From: Torpedo marmorata
Lineage: Eukaryota
DNA length: 64,000 bases
Assembly: GCA_977017645.1 (NCBI GenBank)
Contig: OZ360238.1
Coordinates: 42,904,001 to 42,968,000 of the forward strand
Direction of reading: 5' to 3'
In this document: positions 18,445 to 45,593 of the stretch, in pieces
How the letters are laid out: each line of letters starts with the position of its first letter
Position numbering within the stretch: the first letter of the stretch is position 1
Position numbers and translations under genes: made by a program
Notes under the pieces: generated by a model
What the model saw: only the letters and a program-made list of their open reading frames with translations
Databases searched by the model: none
What the model was told of the DNA's origin: nothing

Positions 18445-19876
18445 TGGTAGATCAAGCTCCAAACCCTGGACCTCTGTACCCCCCTCTGCAACTGGCTCCT
18501 TGACTTCCTCATCAGAAGACCACAGTCAGTACGAATTGGAAACAACGTCTCCTCACTGACGATCAACACAGGCGCACCTCAAGGATGCGTGCTTAGCCCA
18601 CTGCTCTACTCACTCTACACCAGTGGTTTTCAAACTTTTTCTTTCCACTCACATACCACCTTAAGTAATCCCTATGCCATAGGTGCTCTGTGATTAGTAA
18701 GGGATTACTTAAGGTGGTATGTGAGTGGAAAGAAAAAGTTTGAAAACCACTGTTTTAATCGTACCTAGTTGACTCGTTATGTGCACGATTTCATAACTCC
18801 AAAGGAAATGGGCCAATGACAATTTTTCTCAAGCAAAATATTTCAGTAGCAATTGGGTCTAGAGCAATGGTTCTTAACCTTTTCCCTCACTCACATACCA
18901 CCTTATGTAATCCCTTACTAATCACAGAGCACCTATGGCATAGGGATTACTTAAGGTGGTATGTGAGTGGAAAGAAAAAGTTTGAAAACCACTGCTCTAC
19001 ACCCATAATTGTGTGGCTAGGCACAATTAAAATGCAATCTGCAAATTTGCCGAAGACGCCACGGTTGTCGGCAGAATCACAGATGACAATGAGGAAGTGT
19101 ACAGGAGGGAGATAGATCAGCTAGTTGAGTGGTGTCATAACAACCTTGCACTCAACATTAGCAAAACCAAGGAGATGATTGTGGTTTTCAGGAGGAAATC
19201 AGGAGAACACAAACCAGTCCTCATCGAGGGATCAGCAGTGTAGAGGCTCAAGAACTTCAATTTCCTGGTGTCAACATCTCTGAGGATCTGTCCTGGAGCC
19301 TCCATGTTGATGAAGAAGGCTCGCCAATAGCTATACTTTGTAAGAAGTTTGAGGTGATTCGGTATGTCACTGAAGACTCTCAGAAACTTCTACAGGTGTA
19401 CCGTGGAGAGCATTCTGGCTGGTTGCATCACTGCTTGGTATGGAAGTGCCAATGCTCAGGACAAGAAAAAACTCCAGAGTGTTGTTAACTTGCCATGTGA
19501 CATCACGGGCACCTGTCTTCATTCATTCGAGGACATTTTCAAGAGGCAATGTCTCAAGAAAGCAGCCTCTATCCTCAAGGACCCCCACCATCCAGGCCAT
19601 GCCCTCTTCACTCTGCTACCATCAGGAAAAAGGTGCAGGAGCCTGAAGATGAGCACTCAGTGGCACAAGGATAGGTTCTTCCCCTCTGCCATCAGATTTC
19701 TGAATGAACAATGAACCAGAGACACCACCTCACCTTGTCTTCTTCTTTTTCTTGCACTATTTTATTTATTGTTGTAATGTGGTTTATATAAATGTTTGCA
19801 CTGTGATGCTGCCACAAAACAACAAATTTCATGACATGTTCATGACAATAAATTCTGATTCTGATTCTGATTCTGA
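18445..19876 (+). mobile_element. Rex1/Babar LINE 3' half, interrupted by composite MITE
   Basis: LCNWLLDFL...[18 protein letters not shown] interrupted at 18620 and resuming at 18995; ORF 19364-19714; (GATTCT)n tail. Confidence 0.92.
18621..18994. mobile_element. Composite hAT (Charlie-like) element: two inverted palindromic MITEs plus 112-bp spacer
   Basis: Units 18621-18752 and 18865-18994, each with CA(G/A)TGGTT...AACCACTG ends; a single 8-bp TSD CTCTACAC at 18613-18620 and 18995-19002. Confidence 0.9.
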
Positions 19877-45075: not shown

Positions 45076-45330
45076 TTCTGGGAGTCCCAAAATGCCTAAA
45101 ACAGCCAATTAAGTACTCTTGAAGCATTAAGCAATGAAGTACTTTTGAAATGTGTCAAGATATTGTTATGTAAGTGGCAGCTCATCAGCTGCTCAAGATT
45201 CCAGTCCTTGTGTTTCCTGCTTGTTGTGTAAGTAGTATTGTTAGGTAAGCCACTGTTTCAGATCAAGAACAGCATGCATCTCCCTTTTAAGGACAGCGTG
45301 TATAGATTGAAGCACATGCAGTAGCTAGAG

Positions 45331-45447
45331 CAGTGGTTCTTAACCTTTTCCTTTCCACTCACATACCACCTTAAGTAATCCCTTGTGGTTAGTAAGGGAT
45401 TACTTAAGGTGGTATGTGAGTCGAAAGAAAAAGGTTAAGAACCACTG
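45331..45447. mobile_element. Solo palindromic hAT MITE (same family as the units at 18621 and 18865)
   Basis: CAGTGGTTCTTAACC...GGTTAAGAACCACTG; perfect 8-bp TSD AGCTAGAG at 45323-45330 and 45448-45455. Confidence 0.93.
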
Positions 45448-45593
45448 AGCTAGAGTAAGATAATAAAGGAGCAGGATGTCACCACTTTGCTGAGCAACAA
45501 TATGTGTTTAATCATTGACATAGGCATTCAATTATCAGAATTTACAGTGATAATTGTAATGATTGGAACTTCACCAATTTGCACAATGGAAGG

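Follow-up and report, generated by a model that had tools for sequence, protein, structure and literature searches.

The window analyzed here is a stretch of 64,000 nucleotides that carries, at positions 18613-19002, a compound insertion in which two palindromic units enclose a spacer of 112 bp. The features of this block, together with those of a solitary element in the same window, are as follows.

18613-18620, + strand: left 8-bp target-site duplication (TSD), the same 8-mer as 18995-19002
18621-18752, + strand: unit 1, an imperfect palindrome of 132 bp with an A-type tip at both ends
18700-18757, + strand: first copy of a 58-nt direct repeat, the second lying at 18942-18999 (spacing 242)
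18753-18760, + strand: left inner target-like 8-mer, the first 8 bases of the spacer
18753-18864, + strand: 112-bp spacer, non-coding and fixed within the family, with no source located
18857-18864, + strand: right inner target-like 8-mer, the last 8 bases of the spacer, the consensus target
18865-18994, - strand: unit 2, the inverted second unit, with a B-type inner tip and the same outer tip as unit 1
18995-19002, + strand: right 8-bp TSD
45323-45455, + strand: solo 117-bp derivative of the parent MITE P plus its TSDs, the element itself spanning 45331-45447

Throughout, end types are labeled A (window 18621 onward), B (window 18865 and 45331 onward), C (as in locus L003), D (L051), and E (L089).

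The block measures 374 bp in total and has a TSD at its outer ends only. The two units, aligned in inverted orientation, share 93% identity, and in each unit inverted arms flank a 26-nt loop, the two loops being reverse complements of each other. The modules are 132 bp long with short TIRs and no coding capacity, and neither encodes a transposase. The host element, which we take to be Rex1, recovers its reading frame in register once the insert and one TSD copy are deleted, with a stop three codons on; the spacer is foreign to this frame and has no second match within the 64,000-nt window. These observations confirm the anatomy given in the preliminary description (two inverted palindromic units around a 112-bp spacer, with the TSD only outside) as well as its claim that the host frame rejoins exactly. 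The solo reported there at 45331 does have its own TSD (45323-45330 = 45448-45455, perfect), but it is not a copy of the 132-bp unit: with B-type tips at both ends and the parent arm variant, it is a 117-bp derivative of P.

A search of G000 (6.2 Gb) for the 29-letter unit-spacer junction returned 11,533 exact matches, a lower bound given the requirement for an exact match, whereas the reversed control returned 0; chance is therefore excluded. The spacer search of G000 gave 648 candidates, with 40 of 40 scored at 97-100%, and unit DNA adjoins both spacer ends in 30 of the 30 top spacer loci, four of which are truncated. The junction sample comprised 62 of the first 65 listed places (the remaining three had already been sampled, two of them inverted isomers); both ends could be placed in 42, with a TSD of at most one mismatch in 30 and four or more mismatches in 8. 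When all loci are combined, the TSD has at most one mismatch in 96 of the 136 copies with both outer ends and at most two in 110. Positions 4-5 of the TSD read TA in 95% of the symmetrized set derived from these 96 pairs, and an 8-bp TSD with a central TA presumably marks the Buster group. The left TSD of the window block scores as a typical target of the family, above 67% of real TSDs.

Divergence of the spacer is 1.4% across 95 copies and 1.6% across 28 less biased ones. Contigs of four organisms from four studies cover the block, bridging one or both junctions, with a distinct block subfamily in two of them; a fifth organism carries the spacer. The subfamily, found in organisms C and D (runs X6 and X13), is marked by spacer and inner-end variants of its own (about 18-20% at 18763 and about 71% at 18870), which are rare in organisms A and B. 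No RNA sequencing run carrying the block was found among the matches listed.

As such, the window block belongs to a young non-autonomous hAT family, Buster/Charlie-like and high in copy number, and it is virtually certain that the block inserts and moves as one 374-bp whole. The earlier proposal that the block moved as one unit is strongly supported by the thousands of whole blocks, and the test suggested with it, a search for many two-MITE copies flanked by different 8-bp TSDs, came out positive. Two independent MITE insertions side by side at this locus, with no joint movement, would be a rival reading, and MITE multimers formed by independent insertions are described as common in rice (PMC5172404). 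For this block, the probability of that reading is close to nil: it is refuted by a spacer that is foreign to an exactly rejoining host frame, by a TSD at the outer ends only, and by the recurrence of the same block at thousands of sites. In contrast to a multimer of independent insertions, the units here lack individual TSDs, and the array spreads as a whole.

We next consider the units themselves. B-type ends outside blocks gave 1,656 matches, and the 30 viewed comprised 20 of parent type, 9 related to blocks, and 1 free half unit. The parent, P, is a near-perfect palindrome that spans about 160 bp and closes in a loop of 3 nt; an exact search for its center gave 244 matches, and a TSD with no more than two mismatches flanks 12 of 20 copies. 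The 132-bp unit differs from P by a central deletion at a microhomology of 3 letters and by one substitution in the arm, and these two derived characters are common to both units of the block. Mismatches between arms amount to 54/875 (6.2%) in P, 37/2350 in C-type blocks, 17/800 in A-type blocks, and 17/700 in A-A solos. Since its arms are more diverged than those of the blocks or of the A-A solos, P is likely older than the blocks. At L293 and L321, P lies beside a hAT transposase; its candidacy as the end of that element was rejected, as it proved to be a P insertion with its own TSD in duplicated DNA.

Solos of the 132-bp type gave 986 matches, of which 30 were viewed, including 14 A-A and 6 C-C copies. 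Their TSDs are well preserved (at most two mismatches in 13 of 14 A-A solos, perfect in 5 of 5 C-C solos), and B-to-C half units stand alone in L104 and L141. Blocks outnumber 132-bp solos by about ten to one after a rough correction. Because the solos are about as young as the blocks by the arm mismatches given above, they are not demonstrably ancestral.

A likely second route to solos runs through the 58-nt direct repeat, whose copies, spaced by 242 bp, are formed by the right arms of the two units. The halves of a C block run C-to-A and B-to-C, so C-C solos are not excised halves; a collapse between the 58-nt repeats yields C-C solos directly. Block and solo forms interconvert at one site, in a dispersed host repeat of over 2 kb (H; 301 pattern matches) that holds a left-truncated block at that site (L399-L428). 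Among 30 copies of this H site, 13 have the spacer, 16 are collapsed, and 1 is interrupted, with L426 containing an extra 242 bp. The tree of H flanks, built from 24 flank pairs after 6 of the 30 copies with no right flank motif were left out, needs 6 state changes, at least 3 of them forced, and gives no direction of change, its bootstrap not having settled. In shuffles of this tree, 43-45 of 500 scored as low, so that the states are barely clustered. The inner B end occurs in both family variants among the H block copies, and their sequences suggest conversion from other family members. Since a collapse of blocks gives the same picture, the A-A and C-C solos are ambiguous as independent movers. 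Recombination between the 58-nt repeats would turn a block into a solo and sometimes add one repeat, and many solos may be products of blocks rather than their ancestors.

The outer tips of the block are of four types (A, C, D, and E) and are alike at both ends of a copy, while the inner ends are fixed. Specifically, 39 classified copies consist of 30 C/C, 8 A/A, and 1 mixed; a cruder classifier applied to 107 copies found 99 matched and 8 mixed. At the inner ends of 62 junctions, unit 1 is A-type in 61 and unit 2 is B-type in 56. The D tip was found 778 times and the E tip 432 times. Of the D-tip rows, the first 100 contain at least 18 facing pairs, 16 of them spaced 367-379 bp; the first 100 E-tip rows contain at least 19 close pairs, of which 15 are 339-379 bp apart and 4 are 132 bp apart. 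The pairing for L429-L468 is taken from coordinates, and individual copies are L051, L078, L089, L112, L152, and L469-L471. One E-tipped block contains an uninterrupted 983-aa endonuclease/reverse-transcriptase-like frame (L469:443-3394), of the same kind as the host element of the window block.

The block is predicted to fold as a single stem pairing unit 1 with unit 2 (-138.9 kcal/mol, z -26.9). Rare variants recur in both arms of one copy more often than across copies, numbering 5 versus 0.89 expected (reached in 63 of 20,000 shuffles), and a second measure of arm sharing gives 7 versus 1.66 expected (34 of 20,000 shuffles); this signal comes from 4-5 of 99 copies, in a test that left out 8 D/E-type or end-selected copies as well as homopolymer and terminal columns. 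In addition, the interiors are flipped in L122, L125, L152, L156, L160, L470, and L471, and the start of the spacer is mirrored on both sides of unit 1 in L083 and L258. At L022:1330-1800, about 39 bp of the right flank is the reverse complement of the left flank, which by its sequence identifies this copy as a fold-back copy running beyond the element end into host DNA. From the arm-shared variants, the flipped interiors and loops, and the mirrored flank, we infer that arm-to-arm template switching acts within the block.

We now turn to the spacer, whose two ends both resemble targets of the family. The right inner 8-mer ranks first among the 105 spacer 8-mers, a score inflated by the inclusion in the target matrix of loci chosen for this 8-mer as their TSD. 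The left inner 8-mer ranks third of 105 and falls in the top 2.4% of window 8-mers, and it scores above only 12% of real TSDs. Both sites have also been occupied: the left inner 8-mer of L091 holds a solo, and the right inner 8-mer of L097 and L104 holds extra units, with the 8-mer duplicated in each case. Target-like spacer ends that are occupied with duplication are the expected remains of two insertions 112 bp apart. The suggestion that the end of the spacer is a leftover target site is therefore supported, this end being the best of 105 and the other the third.

By contrast, the claim that the block relocates DNA captured elsewhere gained no such support: a MITE-free donor was not found in the exact-anchor searches, and the spacer of the window block is inherited family sequence. 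It is a fixed part of the family rather than fresh cargo, and any capture happened once, in the founder. The spacer contains no open reading frame, and a comparison with Rfam gave 19 hairpin-type matches, none at the gathering score. Against 818,484 bases of sampled DNA, only 2 of 211 spacer matches had no unit nearby, namely a family remnant and one match with E 0.46. Donor searches of G000 that demanded a non-unit base at one spacer end (235 and 476 matches) returned only family copies among the matches listed (60 loci), and the 6 matches with non-unit bases at both ends were all blocks. Under stricter exclusions, 10 of 11 matches were family copies or deletions and the remaining one a chance match, and a further strict search gave 166 matches, of which each of the 30 viewed could be put down to a family copy, a deletion, or, probably, chance. 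Units with the inner 8-mer on both sides were found once with one pattern, as a nested copy, and 66 times with a second pattern, with a donor in none of the 20 viewed. Nor did these exact-anchor donor searches of G000 find a two-insertion intermediate, and their power is roughly estimated at under one half. The failed donor search is weak evidence, because exact anchors are needed and cut-and-paste itself removes the spacer from its first site.

Two sets of loci were considered and rejected in the course of these searches. A group of duplicates with the spacer and unit 2 or its start, and without unit 1 (L377, L389-L393), was rejected as an intermediate; since the right flank of L393 differs from the inner target 8-mer, these read as a block with its left part lost. 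This segment, which holds the block without unit 1, is highly duplicated (98-99% identical over 1.5 kb) and occurs on many small contigs (C23, C24, C87, C154, C156, and C165). L010 and L097, candidates for a long parent, belong to a different dispersed repeat and hold a truncated block.

Internal deletion is the usual origin of non-autonomous hAT elements. The block could accordingly be a derivative of an autonomous hAT that had a palindromic unit at each end, in which case the spacer would be transposon interior and no host DNA would have been captured. The absence of a host donor in the exact-anchor searches is in keeping with such an origin, and KolobokP, as described in PMC9587614, is a precedent for autonomous elements of composite-like build that have non-autonomous derivatives. 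We nevertheless consider this origin, which the preliminary description named as a refuting case, unlikely. In 30 + 40 PF05699 stretches and 30 PF18658 loci, the spacer matched nothing significantly beyond block copies, at either the DNA or the translated level, and none of these 100 transposase-domain stretches contains a transposase element with A, B, or C tips, the sampled PF05699 and PF18658 stretches being a small part of 2,133 and 495 candidates, respectively. Moreover, the three long tip-to-tip pairs considered as parents were all rejected as blocks with later insertions (3 of 3), and both spacer ends are target-like.

For the D subfamily, a candidate for the transposase family that moved it is provided by Spin-doc zinc-finger (PF18658) hAT elements, two internally deleted copies of which have D-like tips and 8-bp TSDs (L346:161-2303 and L347:668-2190). 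Their tips suggest that the block, by exchanging its own, could pass to a different transposase, likeness of tips alone being no proof of use. Several other transposase-related loci were noted. A further hAT family, unrelated to the block tips, is represented by L292, L298, and L320; it has a transposase, a TIR type of its own, and 8-bp TSDs that are rich in GC. At least 14 near-identical matches to the hAT dimerization domain lie within about 4 Mb at G000:C47:95.4-99.7 Mb (members L200, L202-L210, L212, L220, L224, and L225). Five strong Spin-doc zinc-finger matches lie within 30 kb at G000:C62:28.20-28.23 Mb (L328-L332), possibly a domesticated gene or gene cluster.

Altogether, we think it probable that the block arose once, when two palindromic-MITE units landed 112 bp apart in opposite orientation and trapped host DNA between them. 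A Buster/Charlie-type transposase, supplied in trans, would then have cut at the two outer ends of the paired units, such that the spacer would be former host DNA whose ends are the inner halves of two original target duplications. Points against this origin include the lack of a donor, the weak left target, and the occurrence of the same two derived characters in both units. These shared characters are equally explained by a fold-back copy, which leads to a different origin involving one insertion only. A unit would have inserted at the right inner target, and template switching during replication would have copied it in inverted orientation 112 bp away, trapping the flank as spacer and creating new outer ends that were then used, akin to the FoSTeST route that has been proposed for multicopy Pack-TIRs. 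Such an event would account for the derived characters common to both units, it draws on a process evident in the family (the mirrored flank of L022 and the mirrored spacer start of L083 and L258), and it is compatible with a left inner 8-mer that is a modest target. Yet the left junction falls exactly at a complete unit tip, beside a top-2.4% target 8-mer that is occupied with duplication in L091, and the inner tips differ (A versus B), so that an exact copy would need a later change. On balance, we regard a single insertion with fold-back as unlikely.

Following the two insertions that we favor, the block would fold into one long stem, in which template switching copies one arm onto the other. 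Such arm copying would keep the outer tips matched and flip the interior, and it would explain why the parent type survives only at the innermost tip of unit 2.

How does the block compare with known systems? Tn5 and Tn10 are bacterial composite transposons, and the Paris composite of Drosophila virilis is a natural model for the Sleeping Beauty sandwich. We assume that the relatives of the block are those known as the Buster/Charlie group. Like hAT MITEs of this group, the block has an 8-bp TSD with a central TA in about 95%, short TIRs, and a palindromic parent, P; unlike them, it joins two whole MITEs and a spacer and displays four outer-tip types on one fixed core. It resembles bacterial composite transposons in its two near-identical inverted mobile modules whose outer ends are used together, and differs from them in that its modules encode no transposase and its passenger has no evident selectable function. 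With the bacterial composite transposon defined as in PMC9587614, the block works like one yet lacks the encoded transposase that would make it one; nor is it a KolobokP or a Pack-TIR.

KolobokP elements are described as composite-like DNA transposons with TIR-bounded modules, solos with TSDs, and multimers attributed to unequal crossover (PMC9587614). The block has in common with them an interior enclosed by two TIR-bounded modules, solos that carry TSDs, and membership in a young non-autonomous family of similar build. According to the same account (PMC9587614), however, KolobokP has modules of about 450 or 660 bp in direct repeat, its TSDs are 3-5 bp, its interior codes for a transposase and a His-Me nuclease, and its copies number from tens to a few hundred, whereas the block has inverted palindromes of 132 bp, an 8-bp TSD, 112 bp of non-coding interior, and more than 11,500 copies. 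In the maize compound Ds-l4-483 and the Ac/Ds macrotransposons, as in the block, neighboring hAT ends enclose intervening DNA and can move it (PMC3260210); the maize compounds treated there are single events or loci, ranging from kilobases to 100 kb, while the compound described here is a fixed high-copy family. The Sleeping Beauty sandwich vector likewise places cargo between two complete inverted end pairs, but as reported it is engineered, belongs to Tc1/mariner, and carries kilobase cargo (PMC5715130). Finally, animal Pack-TIRs, mostly hAT, contain non-TE-like filler within a TIR element and include multicopy cases with distinct TSDs, namely four among the 370 reported, the example given having three copies (PMC8277862). 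Their filler lies inside one element and its parent copy is identified (PMC8277862), whereas the filler of the block lies between two complete units, and a TE-free parent copy was not found in exact-anchor searches of G000. A high-copy inverted double-MITE hAT family was not found in the literature searched, and Repbase or Dfam may already record this one without comment.

These results show that a two-MITE composite has become a stable eukaryotic family of very high copy number, as opposed to a single rearrangement. They may, more tentatively, describe a natural sandwich MITE that re-addresses itself, having trapped host DNA and swapped its outer tips in matched pairs, through template switching in the stem-loop, around a frozen core to use successive Buster-type transposases; we see this as possible rather than likely. 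A transposase-domain family in G000 has tips that resemble the D tip. The passenger is short and has no evident function. The family would represent a way, other than internal deletion, in which new DNA-transposon families arise. Because blocks (more than 11,500), solos, parent palindromes, inverted isomers, and all four tip types coexist in one genome, a single family offers a test of two old questions, namely whether an element with doubled ends is more mobile and how the two TIRs change in concert, permitting a switch of transposase.
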